Positions 677 through 10,364 are shown, counted from the stretch's first letter. The stretch: 11,480 nucleotides of DNA from a virus (UHGV-0171102); one strand, 5' to 3'. A program made the numbers and translations. The notes: a model not told the origin generated them from the letters alone.

Positions 677-760
677 GTAATTACCTTGGAGGTAATAAAA
701 TATTCTAAAATCTATTGATTTCGTGTCTTATGTGGTTTTTAATTACCTAAGGGGTAAATC
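677..760 (+). promoter_or_regulatory. Candidate promoter/operator region upstream of the DUF1064 gene
   Basis: AT-rich intergenic region. TAATTACCT occurs twice (678-686 and 742-750), the first within the perfect palindrome GGTAATTACC (677-686). Possible -35 TTGATT (715-720) and -10 TTTAAT (738-743) with 17 bp spacing. SD AAGGGG at 749-754. Confidence 0.25.
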
Positions 761-2932: not shown

Positions 2933-3382
2933 TGGCCTCACGGAAAACTAGCTGGCGTTCCAGTGTGGCACATGAATGAAAGTGACGAGCGATTTATTCA
3001 TTTGTGCAATGAGTTTCCGCGAGTGGCTATCGGTAGTTGTGGCGACTATGACGTAAAGCGCCCAACTCTTGCGGTAGCCAGAATGAAAGACCTGATTCGT
3101 CACATTGTTGATGAGTATGGTCAGCCGGTTGCGAAACTACATGGATTGCGCATGTTAAATCCGCAGATATTCACAAAATTACCCTTAGCCAGCGCAGATA
3201 GTACGAACGTCGCTCGAAACATCGGTATTGATAAAGCCTGGTCTGGGGCTTATGCACCTGCAAGTAAAGAGACACGAGCAGCATTAATGGTAGAACGGAT
3301 TGAGGCACACAATAGCCCTGGTTCTCTTGCGTATTGTGAACAACGCGACCGCTTTGAAATGCAATTGCAACTAGCAGTTTAA
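2933..3382 (+). CDS. In-frame continuation (C-terminal segment) of the TGT/DpdA-like gene after the TAG; ends TAA
   Basis: Same frame as 2627..2932 with no intervening stop other than TAG. No SD before the internal GTG 2963 or ATG 2972, so independent initiation is unlikely. Confidence 0.55.
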   Translation, partial: WPHGKLAGVPVWHMNESDERFIHLCNEFPRVAIGSCGDYDVKRPTLAVARMKDLIRHIVDEYGQPVAKLHGLRMLNPQIFTKLPLASADSTNVARNIGIDKAWSGAYAPASKETRAALMVERIEAHNSPGSLAYCEQRDRFEMQLQLAV

Positions 3383-3392
3383 GGACTAACAA

Positions 3393-4175
3393 ATGACCAC
3401 TATTACCAAAGAACGTATTGAATTGTTCATTAAAAATCCGCTTGAAAACGGGCTTACTCGTGGCGAACAAATGGAACTGGCACGAATTGCACTGGCATCA
3501 CTGGAACGCGAACTGATTCGCCACGAGCATGCCAAATGGTCTGACTCCACATTTGGCTGCGTTGGCCCCATTGGTCCACTGAAACACCTCTCAAAAGAGG
3601 CTCTGGAAGCCGCAGCCGAACCAGACGATCTCAGCGAGTGGGCTGATATGCATTTCCTGTTGTGGGATGCACAGCGCCGTGCTGGCATCAGCGATGCTGA
3701 AATTACCGCTGCTATGGAAGATAAATTGAAGATCAACATGGAGCGCCAGTGGCCTGAACCAAAAGATGGTGAGCCTCGCTTGCACATTAAAGAACCCGGC
3801 AACTCTCCGGTAATTCCGGATGGTTTATCCACGGTATGCGCTGAGGCTTATCAGGTTGTAGGAGTTATGGCAGATGCGCTTGGTGTATTCGGTGATGCAG
3901 CAGTACAGAAAGTTCTGGATAACCTGTCACAGCAAAAACTTGTTCACAGAGATGTGCTGCCGTTCTCGCTTCCGGTGACTCCGGATGGTTGGATAAGCTG
4001 TAGTGAGCGAATGCCCGCTCAAGATGATTGGATTTTAATTTATTCAAAGCACGGCGAGTATATGGCAGGACAGGTACAAGGGGAATACGTGGAGTTGAGC
4101 GACGGCACTTTATCGTGGTTAGGGAACGCCTTGTACTGGATGCCTCTACCGGAACCGCCGCAGGAGGTGAAGTGA
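3393..4175 (+). CDS. Phage protein with N-terminal MazG-like nucleotide pyrophosphohydrolase-like region (DUF550-like) and C-terminal DUF551-like domain
   Basis: ATG with SD AAGGA 7 nt upstream; 260 aa. Helical segment LSKEALEAAAEPDDLSEWADMHFLLWD...AMEDKLKINMERQW fits the MazG/HisE-like acidic-helix pattern. C-terminal ...DGWISCSERMPAQDDWILIY...WMPLPEPP is typical of DUF551. Confidence 0.8.
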   Translation: MTTITKERIELFIKNPLENGLTRGEQMELARIALASLERELIRHEHAKWSDSTFGCVGPIGPLKHLSKEALEAAAEPDDLSEWADMHFLLWDAQRRAGISDAEITAAMEDKLKINMERQWPEPKDGEPRLHIKEPGNSPVIPDGLSTVCAEAYQVVGVMADALGVFGDAAVQKVLDNLSQQKLVHRDVLPFSLPVTPDGWISCSERMPAQDDWILIYSKHGEYMAGQVQGEYVELSDGTLSWLGNALYWMPLPEPPQEVK

Positions 4176-4297
4176 TGAACAAGTGCAACGCTCTGCTTTA
4201 TGCCATGGTGATTGGTTTCGGCCTGGCTGCTGGTATCCGGGTTTATATTACCTGGGAGTCATTAATCAATCTGGCGTGGAGTGCGATTCGTGGCTAA
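4175..4297 (+). CDS. Candidate small hydrophobic (single-TM) peptide, 40 aa
   Basis: ATG 4175 overlaps the stop of the upstream gene (GTGATGA). Translation MNKCNALLYAMVIGFGLAAGIRVYITWESLINLAWSAIRG is a hydrophobic helix. The longer track ORF 4028..4297 overlaps the upstream gene out of frame. Confidence 0.35.
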   Translation: MNKCNALLYAMVIGFGLAAGIRVYITWESLINLAWSAIRG

Positions 4298-4628
4298 ATC
4301 CCCCGCAGAACGCAAAGCCGCGCAGCGCGCTCGGCAGTCCGCCGCCGGTGAGCGCAAAATTGAACTGGTGCTGGATAAGCAGGAGCAGGAAATGCTGGAG
4401 CGTAACTGTGCCACGCGTCGCCCCGGGCGTGCGCCTTACGAATTTGGTGAGTATATAGCGTTACTGACCCGCCAGGATGATGCACGCGTGCGCGGGCGTA
4501 TAAAATCGATCAGCAGAAAACGTTGCGGTAAGTGCGGCGAGAGAGTTCCAGTTAATTCATGCCCGTGTAATGGTGACTCGCAATGCTGGGTGACCAAAGG
4601 CTGGCATGAAACGAAATTAATAGTGTGA
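4281..4628 (+). CDS. Hypothetical protein with basic N-terminus and Cys-rich C-terminus (possible zinc ribbon)
   Basis: ORF of 115 aa. Start uncertain: GTG 4281 or GTG 4290, the latter with GGAG 8 nt upstream. C-terminal CGKCG...CPCNG cluster. Stop TGA lies inside the 12-bp palindrome. Confidence 0.55.
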   Translation: MRFVAKSPAERKAAQRARQSAAGERKIELVLDKQEQEMLERNCATRRPGRAPYEFGEYIALLTRQDDARVRGRIKSISRKRCGKCGERVPVNSCPCNGDSQCWVTKGWHETKLIV

Positions 4629-4648
4629 CATGTCACGAAGGTGTTATG
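4624..4648. repeat. Copy 1 of a palindromic repeat: TGTGACATGTCACG + GAA + GTGTTAT
   Basis: Perfect 12-bp palindrome GTGACATGTCAC at 4625-4636. The same 14-mer and following GTGTTAT recur at 7075-7095. Confidence 0.6.
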
Positions 4649-4858
4649 CCAAAAATACGCTACGACCTTGAAGATATGAGAGATAACTCAGCAAATTTTC
4701 CGAAAGAGGTTAAATTTCTCATGCATAAGTATGGTTGCGCCAGGAGGGATATAGTTATCGACAGTCAGCACCCTTGCGGCGAGGATGTAATTTTCATTCG
4801 CGGTAAATGGGAAGGGTATCTTGACGAGAGTTTTTACGATGAATTTGATGGACTTTGA
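4625..4858 (+). CDS. Hypothetical small protein (about 70-77 aa)
   Basis: ORF immediately upstream of terS. Start is either GTG 4625 or ATG 4646 (MPKIRYDLEDMRDN...). Contains AGA and tandem AGG AGG codons. Confidence 0.5.
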   Translation: MTCHEGVMPKIRYDLEDMRDNSANFPKEVKFLMHKYGCARRDIVIDSQHPCGEDVIFIRGKWEGYLDESFYDEFDGL

Positions 4859-4893
4859 ATACTGCCGCCAACTATGGCGGCTTTATTTTGCAT

Positions 4894-4925
4894 GGTACTA
4901 TTACCACAACGGTAACTATTACCAC
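4894..4925 (+). repeat. Tandem direct repeat GGTA(A)CTATTACCAC x2 directly upstream of the terS start
   Basis: ACTATTACCAC at 4897-4907 and 4915-4925 (period 18 bp), followed by GGTGG and ATGATG. Confidence 0.5.
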
Positions 4926-4932
4926 GGTGGTT

Positions 4933-5529
4933 ATGATGCCTGCTGAACCTAAAACCTATAAACGCAAATCAACGCAATTTAAGCCACTAACAGCAATGCA
5001 GGAGGCTTATTGCCAGTCATACATCAAAACGCCTGAAAACCAGACTCAGGCAGCGATTAACGCAGGATTCTCCCCAAATACAGCGGCAGTTAAAGCCAGT
5101 GTCATGATGCGCGATGAACGCATTCAAAAACGGATTGCCGAGTTGATGGAGGAGCGCAACAAACGAATGCGCGTCAGTGCTGATTACGTTCTCATGCGCC
5201 TGGTGGAGATCGACCAGATGGACGTGATCGACATCCTCAACGACGATGGGAGCCTTAAGCCAATCCGCGAGTGGCCGAAAATCTGGCGCACTACGCTTAG
5301 TGGCTTTGATCTGTCATCGACCATCATGAACATGAACGAGGATTCGATAGAGACAATCCTCAAAAAAATTAAATGGCCTGACAAGGTGAAGAACCTCGAA
5401 CTGATTGGTAAGCACGTCGACGTCAACGCATTCAAAGAACGCCTGGATGTTAATGTGAATGTGACAATTGCTGATCGCATAGCGGCAGCCAGGAAGAGAC
5501 TGAAAGAACGTCAGGATGGCAATCAGTGA
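4933..5529 (+). CDS. Terminase small subunit
   Basis: Protein ...INAGFSPNTAAVKASVMMRDERIQKRI... fits the small-terminase family pattern (AGYSxxxA...). Sits immediately upstream of, and overlapping, the large terminase gene. Start ambiguous (ATG 4933 or 4936; the open frame extends to TTG 4855). Confidence 0.8.
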   Translation: MMPAEPKTYKRKSTQFKPLTAMQEAYCQSYIKTPENQTQAAINAGFSPNTAAVKASVMMRDERIQKRIAELMEERNKRMRVSADYVLMRLVEIDQMDVIDILNDDGSLKPIREWPKIWRTTLSGFDLSSTIMNMNEDSIETILKKIKWPDKVKNLELIGKHVDVNAFKERLDVNVNVTIADRIAAARKRLKERQDGNQ

Positions 5530-7001
5530 CAGATACAGCGTTATCTCCTGAAGAGCAGTTAATCGAGGATATTGCAGGGTTCACTCACGATCCGCTTGGC
5601 TATGCCCTCTATGCGTTCCCGTGGGGGGAAGAGGGTACTGAACTGGCACATGCCACCGGTCCACGTCAGTGGCAGGCCGATGCGTTCCGAGAGATACGTG
5701 ATCACCTGCAGAATCCAGAGACGCGATATCAGCCGCTTATGCTGGCACGTGCTTCTGGTCACGGTATTGGTAAATCCGCATTCATCTCAATGCTGATCAA
5801 CTGGGGCATGTCCACTTGCGAGGATTGTAAGGTCGTGGTGACCGCCAACACCGACAACCAGCTACGAACGAAGACCTGGCCGGAAATTATCAAGTGGTCA
5901 AACCTTGCTATCACGAAAGACTGGTTTACCTGTACCGCTACCGCGATGTACAGCAATGACCCTGGGCACGACAAGCGGTGGCGAGCTGACGCAATCCCCT
6001 GGTCTGAGCACAACACTGAGGCATTCGCCGGACTACACAACGAGCGTAAACGCATCATCGTGGTATTTGATGAAGCGTCGAACATTGCGGATCTGGTGTG
6101 GGAAGTTGCCGAGGGTGCGCTAACGGACGAAGACACTGAGATTATCTGGGTGGCTTTCGGAAACCCTACACGTAACACCGGGCGTTTCCGTGAATGTTTC
6201 CGCAAATACAAACACCGCTGGAAAACTGCGCAGATTGACAGCAGGACGGTGGAAGGCACCAACAAACAGCAGTTGCAGAAATGGGTTGATGACTACGGGG
6301 AAGATAGCGACTTCGTTAAAATCCGTGTGCGTGGCATATTCCCTGATGCATCTGAATTGCAGTTTATCCCTACCGGTCTTACTGACGAGGCAATGAAACG
6401 GGTGGTAACTGCTGCGCAGGTGGCACATGCTCCGGTGATAATCGGCGTTGACCCGGCATACTCCGGCGTTGATGACGCTGTGATATACCTGCGGCAGGGG
6501 CTACACAGTAAGGTGCTGTGGACTGGCAACAAGACTACCGACGATCTGATTATGGCGAAGCGTATCGCTGACTTTGAAGACCAGTATCAGGCTGACGCGG
6601 TGTTCATCGACTTCGGTTACGGAACCGGTTTGAAGTCAATCGGTGACGGCTGGGGTCGTACATGGCAACTTGTTCCGTTCGGTGGCGCGTCTACTGACCA
6701 GCAGATGCTCAACAAGCGTGGGGAGATGTTCAACTCATGCAAGACATGGCTGAGGCTGGGCGGCATGCTTGATGACCAGGAAACAGCGGACGACCTGTCG
6801 GCGGCAGAGTACAAAGTTCGAGTGGACGGTAAAATCGTTATCGAACCGAAGGAAGATATCAAGGAGCGGCTTGGGCGTTCTCCTGGTAAAGGCGATGCGC
6901 TACTGCTGACGTTTGCGTTCCCGGTGTCAAAGCGCCTGCGAATTCCCGGGCAGCAGAACCAGCAAGGCAAGGCCATTACAGATTACGATCCCTATGCTTA
7001 A
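5526..7001 (+). CDS. Terminase large subunit
   Basis: 491 aa. Walker A ASGHGIGKS and Walker B IIVVFDEAS in the N-terminal half; C-terminal nuclease-like IGVDPAYSG. GTG start overlaps the terS stop (GTGA). Confidence 0.9.
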   Translation: MTDTALSPEEQLIEDIAGFTHDPLGYALYAFPWGEEGTELAHATGPRQWQADAFREIRDHLQNPETRYQPLMLARASGHGIGKSAFISMLINWGMSTCEDCKVVVTANTDNQLRTKTWPEIIKWSNLAITKDWFTCTATAMYSNDPGHDKRWRADAIPWSEHNTEAFAGLHNERKRIIVVFDEASNIADLVWEVAEGALTDEDTEIIWVAFGNPTRNTGRFRECFRKYKHRWKTAQIDSRTVEGTNKQQLQKWVDDYGEDSDFVKIRVRGIFPDASELQFIPTGLTDEAMKRVVTAAQVAHAPVIIGVDPAYSGVDDAVIYLRQGLHSKVLWTGNKTTDDLIMAKRIADFEDQYQADAVFIDFGYGTGLKSIGDGWGRTWQLVPFGGASTDQQMLNKRGEMFNSCKTWLRLGGMLDDQETADDLSAAEYKVRVDGKIVIEPKEDIKERLGRSPGKGDALLLTFAFPVSKRLRIPGQQNQQGKAITDYDPYA

Positions 7002-7027
7002 TCCGTTAGCGGGGATAATGACGGAGA

Positions 7028-7077
7028 TATCCTCTGGTGAGGATAAAACAAAGCCAGCTCATCGGCTGGCTGTTTGT
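7028..7077. terminator. Candidate bidirectional terminator between convergent terL (+) and the 123-aa ORF (-)
   Basis: Hairpin TATCCTC-TGGT-GAGGATA (7028-7045) and hairpin AGCCAGC-TCATCG-GCTGGCT (7052-7071). The second is flanked by TTTGTTTT on the minus strand and TGTTTGT on the plus strand. Confidence 0.4.
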
Positions 7078-7096
7078 GACATGTCACGGTGTTATT
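7075..7096. repeat. Copy 2 of the palindromic repeat: TGTGACATGTCACG + GTGTTAT
   Basis: GTGACATGTCAC at 7076-7087, identical to 4625-4636, with shared flanks. Abuts the stop codon (7092-7094) of the minus-strand ORF. Confidence 0.6.
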
Positions 7097-7463
7097 GCTC
7101 GCTTAACTTCTGCTTCAGCAAGTAACCTTCAAGCATCCAGATTTTGTTTACAGCATTCTGCCGGGCAATCTTCCGACCAATTTCCGCATCAAAGTTTTCT
7201 GGGCTTGCACAGGCGCTCTCTCCGGTGACGGTGAAGCCGTTGCGCAGCACCAGAACGCAGAACGTCAGCAGAGAAAGTGATTCGTTCGGCTGGTAGTTTA
7301 CCTCTCCGCCAGTATGTTTCGCTTTTATGGCCACGCCAAAGACACCATCTTCTGCTGTGAAATATGCCTCCTGAGCAATAATGCTCTCGATATGGTCTGG
7401 CGTAACGCGCGGCGCGGCTAAACCTTTAGCCTGAATTTCAGATTCAATGTCTTTGTCACTCAT
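7092..7463 (-). CDS. Hypothetical protein (123 aa), reverse-oriented moron; possibly N4 Gp49 / Sf6 gp66-like family (tentative)
   Basis: Minus-strand ORF with SD AAGGTGA about 9 nt upstream of ATG 7463. Convergent with terL and followed by a terminator hairpin. The family assignment is from memory and weak. Confidence 0.7.
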   Translation of the reverse strand: MSDKDIESEIQAKGLAAPRVTPDHIESIIAQEAYFTAEDGVFGVAIKAKHTGGEVNYQPNESLSLLTFCVLVLRNGFTVTGESACASPENFDAEIGRKIARQNAVNKIWMLEGYLLKQKLSEQ

Positions 7464-7479
7464 AGTCTATTCTCACCTT

Positions 7480-7504
7480 AAAAAAATGCCCGGCGAACCG
7501 GGCG
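7480..7504 (-). terminator. Intrinsic terminator-like hairpin (UUCG tetraloop) plus U7, directly abutting the RBS of the 123-aa ORF
   Basis: Minus-strand RNA GCCCGG-UUCG-CCGGGC followed by AUUUUUUU, then AAGGUGAGAAUAGACU-AUG. Confidence 0.5.
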
Positions 7505-7581
7505 AACTGGAGGCAATGAGTTATGCCTTCCGTGGCTGTACTGGTTTACAGCATGAAGTCATCGCAATGGCGTCCTGCTGT

Positions 7582-7624
7582 AAAAATGGCGGTGATAGTC
7601 CTTCAAGGGAAACCATCACCGCCA
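7582..7624 (-). terminator. Candidate tRNA terminator
   Basis: Perfect 10-bp inverted repeat TGGCGGTGAT / ATCACCGCCA (7587-7596 / 7615-7624) with an 18-nt loop, followed on the minus strand by UUUUU. Lies about 45 nt downstream of the tRNA 3' end. Confidence 0.45.
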
Positions 7625-7666
7625 AGCCCCTGGAACTTCTGGCATCACGGTCCTTAGGCGTGATTC

Positions 7667-7743
7667 TGGCGTGGCATGCAGGATTCGAACCTGCGACCAA
7701 CCGCTTAGAAGGCGGTTGCTCTGTCCAACTGAGCTAATGCCAC
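7667..7743 (-). tRNA. tRNA-Arg (anticodon UCU), phage-encoded, CCA encoded
   Basis: Reverse complement GTGGCAT-TA-GCTC-AGTTGGACA-GAGC-A-ACCGC-CTTCTAA-GCGGT-TGGTC-GCAGG-TTCGAAT-CCTGC-ATGCCAC-GCCA. Acceptor (7 bp), anticodon and T stems are perfect, with a 4-bp D stem and GTTCGAATC T-loop. Anticodon TCT. Confidence 0.9.
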
Positions 7744-8170
7744 AACGCTGAGAGCACTTAGCCTGTTAAGGCACCACACTTTGTCGCGGCTCCATAAATG
7801 CTCTCATCGTTGCACCCTCGTCTCTTCCGAGGTGTCACACCGAATCGCCGGGATGGTGAATCCCCGTGCGCGGAATAAAACCGCTCGACTTGCACATTCC
7901 GGCTACCTGGTTCGTTTGCCATAGCAAGGGAGGGTGCCCCTTAAACGTATCCAGACCGCTATCGGCGCATGTGCCATACACCGTACTGCTCAAAATAAAA
8001 GCTCACCCCACCTGTTCAATTTAACGACAAGCCAGTCAGGTTAATAACCGGAATGAACTCTTTGCTTACCTGAAAGGTAATAATTAGTGCGTTAAATGTC
8101 AAGTATCTACGATAAATAAATCACATGTGGTTAAATTGGTAATAATTTAATTGCGTACGGAGTCATTGAT

Positions 8171-10071: not shown

Positions 10072-10364
10072 CAGATTACGAAGACGATCAACTGAAAGAA
10101 GAAAACGCCCGTAAGCAACGTGACATGGCACAGCGTGAAATTGATGACATTCGCTTTGTCATGAGCAGTGAACAGGGGCGTCGCGTTGTCTGGTCGGTGC
10201 TGGAGAAAGGCCGTGTGTTTTCTGCTATCTCACCGATGGACGCTATGGCTATGGCATTTAATGAGGGGCAACGCAATCTGGCGCTGGAACTGTTTCAGCG
10301 CGTTATGGCGCATTGCCCTGAACAGTATTTGAAGATGGCCAAAGAGGCCAGTGAACAGGAGTGA
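10068..10364 (+). CDS. Hypothetical head-module protein (98 aa)
   Basis: ATG overlaps the portal stop (ATGA); the scaffold-like gene starts 2 nt after its own stop. Confidence 0.7.
   Translation: MTDYEDDQLKEENARKQRDMAQREIDDIRFVMSSEQGRRVVWSVLEKGRVFSAISPMDAMAMAFNEGQRNLALELFQRVMAHCPEQYLKMAKEASEQE

Follow-up and report, generated by a model that had tools for sequence, protein, structure and literature searches.

Why should a phage genome carry the same perfect 12-bp palindrome twice, on either side of its terminase genes? We addressed this question in an 11,480-nucleotide stretch of viral DNA (UHGV-0171102; hereafter the window), which is a stretch of an epsilon15/phiV10-like phage (Uetakevirus). 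An earlier note made from the sequence had pointed out the repeat and had offered an operator, a module-exchange boundary, or a packaging-related site as its role; its observation was partly confirmed and its interpretation partly supported. The reading that we favor, with confidence slightly short of an even chance, is that GTGAC-N2-GTCAC motifs are the sites of a ribbon-helix-helix (RHH) protein and act as boundary or roadblock elements. The features concerned are the following.

4290-4628, plus strand: gene for the putative cognate DNA-binding protein (RHH/Cys protein; epsilon15 gp49/phiV10 p55/N15 gp46 family, phrog_536)
4625-4636, no strand: site 1, perfect 12-bp palindrome GTGACATGTCAC, exact match
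4646-4858, plus strand: region of the 77-aa ORF (about 70 aa when read from ATG 4646), inserted after site 1 and ahead of the terminator (PHROG match, phrog_1541)
4864-4889, plus strand: intrinsic terminator (GCCGCCAACTATGGCGGC and T-tract; RNA fold), closing the early-right unit 5' of terS
4900-4934, plus strand: two tandem repressor-operator-like sites (ATTACC-N5-GGTAAT, one mismatch each; motif scan)
4933-5529, plus strand: terS, likely from ATG 4933 (ORF and family matches)
5526-7001, plus strand: terL (ORF and family matches)
7052-7071, no strand: bidirectional terminator hairpin (terminator scan and fold)
7076-7087, no strand: site 2, second perfect copy of the palindrome, exact match
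7092-7463, minus strand: gp66-like ORF, N4 gp49/Sf6 gene 66 family (Pfam, PF13876), 3' end towards site 2

Both copies of the palindrome were exact, as first described, and a 14-mer, TGTGACATGTCACG, was common to the two sites (4624-4637 and 7075-7088). Site 1 spans the last sense codon and the TGA stop (GTG TGA) of the RHH/Cys gene, which bears out the reported overlap with the end of a Cys-rich ORF. The start region of the 77-aa ORF, also said to be overlapped, adjoins the site, but the site lies just 5' of the ORF if this begins at ATG 4646, the start we adopted because the PHROG match begins at residue 11. Site 2 is located past terL, 4 nt from the bidirectional terminator on one side and 4 nt from the stop of the gp66-like ORF (minus strand) on the other, in agreement with its original placement. 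The claim that the repeat exceeds chance held for the palindrome, since any 12-bp palindrome was present twice in only 5 of 1000 dinucleotide-preserving shuffles of the window, but not for the 14-mer, which had a counterpart in 244 of 1000 such shuffles and is unremarkable by itself. With up to two mismatches allowed, the window held three matches against 0.37 expected; the third of these (10120-10131), which has one mismatch, is within a coding region and had no conserved counterpart in epsilon15 or Tyrion. The flank match, put at about 21 positions, is present in the window, but epsilon15, Tyrion, and other relatives have no GTGTTAT at the corresponding sites. This flank coincides with the Shine-Dalgarno region and ATG of the 77-aa ORF at copy 1 and includes the stop codon of the minus-strand ORF at copy 2, and judging from these sequences the match looks like chance. 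The weight of the observation comes from conservation across genomes, not from the count within the window.

Two other identities were rejected for the palindrome. It is not an intrinsic terminator, as it has only a 4-bp stem and the fold around copy 1 gave z = -0.6; the true terminators are separate hairpins neighboring the palindromes. It is also not the operator of an epsilon15-like prophage repressor (ATTACC-N5-GGTAAT), which is a different motif.

The earlier note had staked its observation on recurrence in related phages, and both the motif and its positions were clearly conserved there. The GTGAC-N2-GTCAC core occurred about three times per genome in each phage lineage with a homologue of the Cys-rich ORF (Uetakeviruses, Pectobacterium ZF40, Yersinia P2-like, N15, Pantoea AH07-like, and Vibrio phages), and gene homologues and motif were found together in at least six unrelated phage types. 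Three sites apiece were identified in the whole genomes of phiV10, epsilon15, Tyrion, and ZF40, as well as in the 45.2 of 46.4 kb scanned of N15; for the Uetakeviruses, the third site, where the late operon ends, is outside the window. The spacing was strict. In 2.9 Mb of gene-bearing loci, we found 258 copies with a spacer of 2 (about 3 expected; median of 1 for composition-matched control palindromes), 0 copies with a spacer of 3, and at most 6 with any other spacer. Additionally, after an unbiased scan of IMG/VR for TGTGACATGTCACA, the RHH/Cys gene was recognized in 32 of the 120 short stretches, and 68 of 123 contexts were homologous to gene-bearing loci, the other 55 not being so tied.

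The gene at 4290-4628 is the final gene of the early-right operon, directly 5' of the late operon, and its 112-aa product is counted from a GTG start at 4290 (4281 in the ORF list). In an AF2 model, a single basic N-terminal helix is followed by an RHH domain, a long helix, and, at the C-terminus, the Cys cluster. The RHH fold was predicted confidently, and the modeled protein shows the strand-helix-helix arrangement of the Arc/MetJ/CopG superfamily. Neither the window's protein nor 57 family members had a match in Pfam, and the RHH/Cys protein likewise had none in NCBIfam; RefSeq and PHROGs label the family "transcriptional regulator", and no report on a role of this protein with the palindrome was found in the literature searched. 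All phage hits for the protein had Vibrio, Aeromonas, or Enterobacterales hosts, which make up the clade possessing MatP and MukBEF. Among the three roles proposed for the repeat, an operator for a phage regulator is favored, with the Cys-rich ORF as the candidate regulator by virtue of its co-occurrence with the motif, and we consider it probable that the RHH/Cys protein binds the motif.

The position of the sites relative to this gene was also conserved. In most gene-bearing lineages, the left half-site contains the TGA that ends the RHH/Cys gene, with different centers (Uetakeviruses AT, Yersinia P2-like GC, N15 TG, Pantoea AH07-like CT or AT), while the site begins 2 nt past the stop in ZF40 and 6 nt past it in one Yersinia sub-lineage. 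Site 1 stood at -3 relative to the stop end in nearly all 80 close relatives, and the same register was seen in Yersinia P2-like, N15, AH07-like, and other lineages. Measured from the stop of the regulator gene, most relatives had site 2 between +2214 and +2451, and it formed an invariant 13-nt island in an alignment with a mean identity of 58%. One lineage (L142-L166) had no site at the gene's stop, so that the overlap is not obligatory, a point against our preferred reading; lineages without a copy at the stop still had 2-3 exact copies close by. The central dinucleotide was mostly uniform within a genome and varied by lineage: all three N15 sites were centered on TG/CA, both sites of Vibrio K308 on AC, and all Uetakevirus and ZF40 sites on AT, with mixed centers in a few loci (L153, AT/AC; L159, AT/CT; some Yersinia, GC/CA).

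These lineage-specific centers favor a phage-specific reader over a common host factor. A host protein, either MatP tolerating 12 bp or another enterobacterial protein, might nevertheless bind the motif, the link to the phage gene being merely positional. The half-sites are the same as those of matS, the SlmA site is likewise a 12-bp palindrome (GTGAGTACTCAC; PMC3020112), every host falls within the clade owning these proteins, and the 55 contexts of the unbiased scan mentioned above were not tied to a gene-bearing phage. This explanation appears highly improbable to us, however, as the register with the stop codon of one phage gene is kept in at least four unrelated lineages, the spacing is always 2 and never the 3 of matS, and the half-site is unlike the SlmA site at position 5. 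Furthermore, three phage loci whose hosts are related enterobacteria (Akira, 39.7 of 45.4 kb; a 2.3-kb P1-like stretch; a 3.4-kb pJN2-26 stretch) had no site at the 3' end of their gp66-like genes and no spacer-2 site anywhere in the sequence examined.

Most of the sites occupy short non-coding gaps where transcription units end, and an intrinsic terminator often follows immediately. Among the 123 context clusters, 77 fell outside any open frame, compared with 27% of random positions. The motif preceded a hairpin and T-tract by 0-40 nt in 16 of the 123 clusters and followed in 3, against a background for this order of 0.9% at random positions and 2.6% at random non-ORF positions; terminator-adjacent contexts nevertheless make up only 13%, which counts against the boundary reading. 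Copies inside coding sequence (ZF40 gp08 and cII, N15 repA, and other phages) count against a roadblock, which would truncate those genes. In N15, genes 36-33 end on one side of a site, and on its other side a promoter-like TTGACG-18-TAGAGT precedes the antirepressor operon.

In the window, sites 1 and 2 bracket the terS-terL transcription unit (4933-7001). The terminator at 4864-4889 (-16.2 kcal/mol, z = -4.1) was kept downstream of site 1 in phiV10, epsilon15, and Tyrion. The 77-aa ORF intervened in 26 of the 80 close relatives, and in the rest the terminator was within about 40 nt of site 1. The two repressor-operator-like sites lie directly 5' of the likely terS start and overlap it. Matches of this type numbered five in the window against 0.26 expected, and the epsilon15 record annotates ATTACC-N5-GGTAAT as repressor-binding, including one just 5' of terS. 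These results suggest that the terminase operon is under a separately controlled promoter. The presence of a terminator and two operator-like sites between site 1 and terS fits separate units that need insulation. At the far end, the hairpin at 7052-7071 has a strong T-tract for the minus direction and a weak GTTTGTG tract on its plus side, which site 2 abuts.

From this layout we propose that each palindrome is read by one RHH dimer and that the accumulating RHH/Cys product would fill the sites, turning them into transcription roadblocks or boundary elements. Occupation of site 1 would halt read-through of the early operon and limit the protein's own mRNA, as LacI does at O3, silence a downstream gene lying before the terminator (here the 77-aa ORF), and insulate the terS-terL unit, which apparently has its own repressor-controlled promoter. 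Occupied site 2 could reinforce the bidirectional terminator on its weak plus-strand side and keep terL transcripts from running antisense into the convergent gp66-like gene, and site 3 might block convergent traffic at the end of the late operon likewise. That roadblock or insulation is the consequence of binding is a tentative proposal, and we would not be surprised to see it fail. A roadblock 5' of a good terminator is superfluous for co-directional transcription; at site 1 it would be counterproductive if Uetakevirus late genes need read-through from the early operon, and a simple scan detected no strong sigma-70 promoter upstream of terS; and, by analogy, the near-identity to matS could mean a quite different, architectural function.

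The other two roles suggested at the outset can be judged by the same distribution. The sites might be recombination or module-exchange junctions, short conserved linkers for cassette swaps that are possibly protein-aided. Variable cargo does adjoin them: the 77-aa ORF is present at site 1 in 26 of 80 relatives, Tyrion has an additional DUF551 gene at site 2, and the morons after site 3 differ. As a description the idea is right, for the sites mark junctions where the insertions of relatives differ, but with no sign of driving recombination. A length of 12-14 bp is insufficient for efficient homologous exchange, intergenic gaps tolerate insertions anyway, no associated recombinase accompanies the sites, and the strict palindrome, the spacing, and the in-gene copies are left unexplained; we regard this explanation as very unlikely. 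A packaging-related site finds no support: each genome has about three copies, which lie where transcription units end, and the motif is also present in phages with unrelated packaging systems (the cos phage N15, P2-like phages, and the myovirus ZF40).

A conventional transcription-factor operator, at which the protein represses or activates promoters adjoining the sites, is another alternative that we consider unlikely. Such a protein could be a late-operon activator at site 1, a Q-like antiterminator loaded before the terminator, or a control of the N15 antirepressor. The order of last early gene, site, terminator, and late operon recalls lambda Q, qut, and tR'; site 1 of epsilon15 and Tyrion has a promoter-like GTGACA-N17-TAAATT; one N15 site is centered about 65 bp 5' of the likely start of the promoter-like element of the antirepressor operon; repression is the typical role of RHH proteins; and the database label points the same way. 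However, the promoter-like layout was not conserved in the window or in phiV10-type phages, where no plus-strand promoter was found, sites 2 and 3 mark the 3' ends of convergent units and are upstream of no operon, and the portal, tail-fibre, and lysis operons start without a site. The geometry is also awkward for an activator because the site center is 15 nt from the ATG of the 77-aa ORF and, in N15, about 27 nt from that of gene 47, distances too short for activation. Since N15 encodes a Q of its own and Ogr-like regulators are present in Yersinia P2-like phages, the RHH/Cys family is no general late activator; the protein is also unlike the Q families, with no Pfam (e.g., PF03589, PF06530) or NCBIfam match and a predicted RHH fold.

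The half-sites lead to a further alternative, of about the same low likelihood, in which the RHH protein is a phage-borne analogue of the MatP/matS system and organizes phage DNA physically instead of acting on transcription. Its task might be to connect sites by bridging or looping, to set the position of the genome, or to shield it from SMC complexes such as the host's MukBEF, and the 12-bp spacing would hide the sites from host MatP. The matS sequence is GTGAC[AG]N[TC]GTCAC (PMC3603311; PMC8669397), and the motif of the window equals the E. coli consensus GTGACATTGTCAC less one central base. Comparison with known sites, a check recommended at the outset, thus found the half-sites of matS, but with one central base fewer, and a mismatch with SlmA at position 5. 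The sites are single palindromes kilobases apart (about three per genome), as are matS sites and not operator arrays; the 13-bp matS was not found in the gene-bearing loci scanned; prophages are reported to be without matS (PMC3603311); and the phage hits of the protein are confined to the clade noted above. On the other side, hhalign gave a probability of 0.1 for the family versus E. coli MatP, a result still compatible with very remote homology, and the protein had no match to PF06303 (N-terminal four-helix bundle) or PF17414 (RHH), both of which MatP homologues carry. Its model lacks the four-helix bundle and the C-terminal coiled coil and has the Cys cluster instead, the preference for non-coding 3'-end gaps and terminators is unexpected of a purely architectural site, and the sequence gives no basis for bridging or SMC interaction. 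In its fullest form, this idea would hold that temperate phages of Enterobacterales, Vibrio, and Aeromonas own a miniature MatP/matS-like system, its sites offset by one bp so that host MatP ignores them, which organizes, bridges, or positions the genome or unloads or excludes SMC (MukBEF) during lytic growth or plasmid-prophage maintenance; we find this quite unlikely.

If the boundary reading is true, it would assign a cognate site, and hence a testable function, to a widespread family labeled "hypothetical" or "transcriptional regulator". This family, phrog_536, is not in Pfam and ranges over Uetakeviruses, N15-like telomere phages, and P2-like, ZF40-like, and Vibrio phages. The layout would be unusual, with an operator over the regulator's own stop and more copies at the terminator-side 3' boundaries of units, and would represent protein-assisted insulation of phage operons, for which there are few precedents such as lacI-O3. 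The offset of one base from matS raises the question of whether phages avoid, imitate, or compete with the host Ter-organizing system. In practice, module boundaries are marked by the motif, and annotators of these prophages have a useful marker in the gene-site pair.

Among known systems, MatP/matS shares with the phage pair identical GTGAC...GTCAC half-sites, an RHH fold (predicted in the phage reader), and isolated single palindromes kilobases apart. The phage site is not a matS, being 12 bp instead of 13 bp with 258 spacer-2 and 0 spacer-3 copies in the gene-bearing loci, and its reader has no detectable MatP sequence homology and differs in architecture as described above. The sites are in phage genomes, mostly at non-coding gene 3' ends, and one overlaps the reader gene's own stop codon. 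The SlmA-binding sequence is likewise a 12-bp perfect palindrome with a 2-bp center and GTGA...TCAC in common, but SlmA is a TetR-family protein, position 5 is G in its half-site and C in that of the phage (GTGAC, not GTGAG), and the phage center is AT, not TA; the two sites are not identical. Phage and plasmid RHH regulators (Arc, Mnt, CopG, omega, ParG, TraY/TraM) are similarly small mobile-element proteins with (pseudo)palindromic sites. Their operators, at promoters, centromeres, or oriT, are tandem or composite and usually take at least two dimers, whereas here single 12-bp palindromes lie at the 3' ends of units and the protein has an additional C-terminal Cys cluster. In the lambda Q/qut/tR' arrangement, the regulator is also the last early gene, followed by a cis site, an intrinsic terminator, and the late operon; the phage protein, in contrast, has no Q-family homology, its site has no conserved promoter, other copies lie at operon ends, and the family is accompanied by Q in N15 and by an extra small regulator at the Ogr position in a Yersinia P2-like phage. 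In lacI-O3, said to have been described by Abo et al. in 2000, a regulator has an operator across the 3' end of the gene that encodes it. LacI has the LacI/GalR fold and not the RHH fold, and O3 is an auxiliary operator that loops with O1 at the promoter, whereas the phage system has no evident promoter-proximal primary operator. In the window and in most lineages, however, the coding sequence of the regulator runs into the site just as lacI runs into O3, and, by analogy, RNA polymerase would be halted by the bound protein short of the stop codon, which would cut both the protein's own synthesis and read-through.

By megablast, the region covered by the window belongs to the epsilon15/phiV10-like podophages of the genus Uetakevirus, with 95-98% identity to E. 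coli O157 typing phages 9 and 10, phiV10, and ZX5; for Salmonella phage epsilon15, Enterobacter phage Tyrion, and Klebsiella relatives, identity is about 80%. The features surrounding the repeated palindrome are listed below.

Features of the window around the two copies of the palindrome
4281/4290-4628, plus strand: Cys-rich ORF of 112-115 aa (phiV10 p55, epsilon15 gp49; phrog_536, 'transcriptional regulator')
4625-4636: palindrome, site 1
4646-4858: region of the 77-aa ORF (phrog_1541), about 70 aa from the ATG at 4646
4864-4881: intrinsic terminator between the 77-aa ORF and terS
4900-4934: two prophage-repressor-operator-like sites between the terminator and terS
ending at 7001: terS and terL
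7052-7071: bidirectional terminator 3' of terL
7076-7087: palindrome, site 2
7092-7463, minus strand: gp66-like ORF (PF13876), convergent with terL

The Cys-rich ORF, hereafter the regulator, is the last gene of the early-right operon in the window. The 77-aa ORF is an insertion flanked exactly by site 1 and the terminator; 26 of 80 close relatives carry it, and phiV10, typing phage 9, epsilon15, and Tyrion lack it. Additionally, a tRNA-Arg gene (anticodon TCT; 7667-7743, minus strand), also annotated in O157 typing phage 9, was found in the moron region after terL, overlapping on the opposite strand the 3' end of an ORF at 7447-7737 with a strong phrog_4647 match. Matches of the early-region ORFs at 2963-3382 and 3393-4175 were to a fragment of a queuine tRNA-ribosyltransferase-like family (phrog_887) and to a PF04447 domain (dATP/dGTP pyrophosphohydrolase) fused to DUF551.

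A second motif, ATTACC-N5-GGTAAT, is annotated in the epsilon15 record as the prophage-repressor binding site. With 0-1 mismatch, five copies were present in the window (680-696, 742-758, 4900-4916, 4918-4934, and 8065-8081) against 0.26 expected, including two in tandem immediately before terS and one ahead of the portal operon. These positions suggest that the late operons are under the direct control of the prophage repressor.

The perfect palindrome GTGACATGTCAC reported in the earlier note was confirmed as an exact match at both sites, which have the 14-mer TGTGACATGTCACG in common. Two occurrences of any 12-bp palindrome were obtained in 5 of 1000 dinucleotide-preserving shuffles of the window, and a repeated 14-mer of whatever kind in 244 of 1000; the significance from the window alone is moderate. 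The matching flank GTGTTAT, which the same note had counted as part of the repeat, is present at both sites in the window and missing at the same sites in epsilon15, Tyrion, and other relatives; it is therefore treated as a coincidence and no longer as part of the element. At copy 1 it supplies the start signals of the 77-aa ORF (ribosome-binding site and ATG); at copy 2 it includes the stop codon of the minus-strand ORF. A one-mismatch copy, GTGACATGGCAC, at 10120-10131 lies within the ORF after the portal gene. It is kept in phiV10-type phages and lacks conservation in epsilon15 and Tyrion; it was therefore taken as probably coincidental too and not accepted as a third site. An RNA hairpin or terminator formed by the palindrome itself was rejected as well (fold z = -0.6, with a stem of 4 bp at most).

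The search of relatives proposed in that note showed that the motif keeps its syntenic positions in diverged Uetakeviruses. At site 1 it overlaps the regulator stop codon, 27-40 nt upstream of the terminator preceding terS, and at site 2 it lies at the gp66-like gene's 3' end, where TGTGACATGTCAC (13 nt) is the sole long invariant block in a six-genome alignment with a mean identity of 58%. A third site, beyond the window, lies right where the 17-kb late operon ends, immediately 5' of the late-operon terminator. Essentially all of the 80 close relatives in IMG/VR carry a perfect palindrome at the regulator stop codon, with or without the downstream 77-aa ORF. The motif was not a feature of the gp66-like moron gene: in three loci chosen on that gene, whatever their regulator-gene content (Akira, 39.7 of 45.4 kb, and short P1-like and pJN2-26 stretches), no site was found at its 3' end and no GTGAC-N2-GTCAC (spacer-2) site elsewhere.

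Regulator homologues were found in phages whose virion and replication modules differ widely, and the motif accompanies the gene there. In Pectobacterium myovirus ZF40, TTGTGACATGTCACA begins 2 nt past the regulator stop, and two further exact copies are present. In Yersinia P2-like phages, the TGA stop lies within the left half-site of TTGTGACGCGTCACA, and the same register is seen in gene 46 of the telomere phage N15 (GCGTGACTGGTCACG) and in Pantoea AH07-like phages (CGTGACCTGTCACG or CTGTGACATGTCACAG). Further IMG/VR lineages also have the motif at or next to the regulator stop, and Vibrio phage K308, with a protein 32% identical, has two CGTGACACGTCACA sites downstream of the gene, one of them 20 nt before terS. 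The lineage comprising loci L142-L166 has no palindrome at the regulator stop; instead, two to three exact GTGACATGTCAC copies are found at other places in the locus, 0.7-1.8 kb away on the upstream side and 2.8-8 kb away on the downstream side, where short gaps directly follow stop codons.

Other elements were observed near the regulator stop in some loci. In L142, L143, L147, and L158, a direct repeat, TGGTTGAC, has one copy at the stop and the other about 25 nt further downstream. Among the Yersinia P2-like phages, L113, L115, and L128-L137 have an additional element that is only half palindromic, (A/T)GCGCGTCACAA, about 40 nt past the full site TTGTGACGCGTCACA at the stop codon, and other members have a weak hairpin and T-tract in its place.

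In 2.9 Mb of gene-bearing loci, GTGAC-N2-GTCAC occurred 258 times against about 3 expected, and control palindromes of matched composition had a median count of 1. The spacing was strict, with 258 copies at spacer 2, none at spacer 3, and at most 6 at any other spacer. Despite their differing genome architectures, phiV10, epsilon15, Tyrion, and ZF40 (L001, L003, L004, and L005) each have three sites per whole genome; in N15, three sites were found in the 45.2 of 46.4 kb scanned (loci L007 and L294), as follows.

Sites in N15
L294, 28550-28561
L007, 214-225
L007, 6246-6257

One of these begins some 25 bp upstream of a promoter-like sequence, TTGACG-18-TAGAGT, one is inside repA, and one overlaps the gene 46 stop. 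The central dinucleotide varies among lineages and is mostly uniform within a genome (the asymmetric TG/CA at all three N15 sites, AC at both K308 sites), with a few loci mixing centres.

The three gp66-bearing loci above agree with a link between motif and gene, and so does a scan in the reverse direction. This unbiased scan of 2.9 million viral contigs, restricted to the TGTGACATGTCACA variant, returned 120 short stretches, 32 of which had the regulator gene in the same stretch. When all sites were clustered into 123 independent sequence contexts, 68 were homologous to gene-bearing loci. Several stretches not tied to such a locus, including L171, L186, and L203, have the common context TTGACTGTT-GTGACATGTCAC-ACCT, which may reflect another use of the palindrome in other phages, for example within a promoter spacer. 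The hosts were Vibrio, Aeromonas, or Enterobacterales in 150 of 150 records of phages with a regulator homologue; Pseudomonas and other hosts were absent from these records, though heavily represented in the database. These hosts make up the clade having MatP, MukBEF, SeqA, and Dam.

No Pfam or NCBIfam model matched the regulator protein, and a sequence search for relatives among solved structures gave noise only. An AlphaFold2 model from a 57-sequence alignment was confident (mean pLDDT 89); it predicts a basic helix at the N-terminus, then a strand-helix-helix core and a long helix, and a cluster of cysteines at the C-terminus. The cysteines and two arginines of the basic helix are among the residues invariant across the family. 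In the BFVD fold search, the one significant match, a fragment of 46 aa that shares 95% identity with the query, is labeled a ubiquitin-binding zinc finger and gave no functional lead. With this predicted ribbon-helix-helix (RHH) fold, a dimeric reader would fit a 12-bp palindrome. The most economical reading of the sequence comparisons is that the palindromes are probably the cognate sites of this RHH/Cys protein.

The sites are concentrated outside genes: 77 of the 123 contexts lie outside every open frame, against 27% of random positions. In 16 contexts, a GC-rich hairpin lies 0-40 nt from the motif with a T-tract on its far side (gap of 0-6 nt in 12 of the 16), which places the motif directly 5' of an intrinsic terminator. 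The reversed order was seen in 3 contexts only, and terminator adjacency had a background of 0.9% among random positions and 2.6% among random non-ORF ones. Site 2 of the window shows the same arrangement on the minus strand; on the plus strand, its hairpin is followed only by a weak GTTTGTG tract running into the motif. The N15 site near the promoter-like sequence lies between the end of genes 36-33 and that sequence, ahead of the antirepressor operon.

As to mechanism, we tentatively favor a role of the sites as a boundary or roadblock, because they mark the 3' ends of transcription units and not promoters, one site overlaps the regulator's own stop codon, and the next gene is too near the site for activation in the window, N15, and AH07-like phages. 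Protein bound at its own stop codon would stall polymerase just before the stop and thereby limit its own synthesis; LacI at O3 reportedly acts in this way, stalling polymerase short of the stop and limiting LacI synthesis (a finding ascribed to Abo et al. 2000). In the window, the order of site 1, terminator, and repressor-operator-like sites before terS also favors this role and implies separately controlled units that would gain from insulation. Against a roadblock, there are intragenic copies (ZF40 gp08 and cII, N15 repA), a roadblock would be redundant 5' of a good terminator, and no terS promoter was identified in the window.

A literature search found no paper containing the 12-mer, with the epsilon15 genome paper (PMC2698709), where an earlier mention is possible, lying outside it; likewise, no description of a phage matS-like system and no paper on the function of N15 gp46 or epsilon15 gp49 were found. 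An RHH regulator with a palindromic operator would be known in kind; the conserved placement of the sites is unusual, and the motif is strikingly like matS.

The layout of the phage module resembles that of lambda Q, qut, and tR', and the likeness ends there; a Q-like module was rejected, with no homology to Q and no conserved promoter. CRP/FNR-type sites have the form TGTGA-N4-TCACA, and this identity was dropped since the motif accompanies a phage RHH gene and its spacing suits neither host factor. The prophage-repressor operator is a different motif, ATTACC-N5-GGTAAT, and the SlmA site GTGAGTACTCAC, also a 12-bp palindrome (PMC3020112), has a half-site unlike that of the phage motif.

The E. 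coli matS site, GTGAC[AG]N[TC]GTCAC with consensus GTGACATTGTCAC (PMC3603311, PMC8669397), is read by the RHH domain of MatP (PMC12756933), and the phage motif equals matS less one central base. This likeness would suit a MatP-like architectural or anti-SMC role of the phage protein and its sites, which we consider unlikely. The phage spacing is strictly 2, the domain architecture of the protein is unlike that of MatP, MatP Pfam models did not match it, and hhalign against E. coli MatP gave a probability of 0.1. The MatP sequences returned by a protein database search were all near-identical ones from E. coli. On these grounds, the phage system is not a member of the MatP/matS family. Prophages are reported to lack true matS (PMC3603311), so the one-base offset could keep the phage sites invisible to host MatP, or it could represent convergence.
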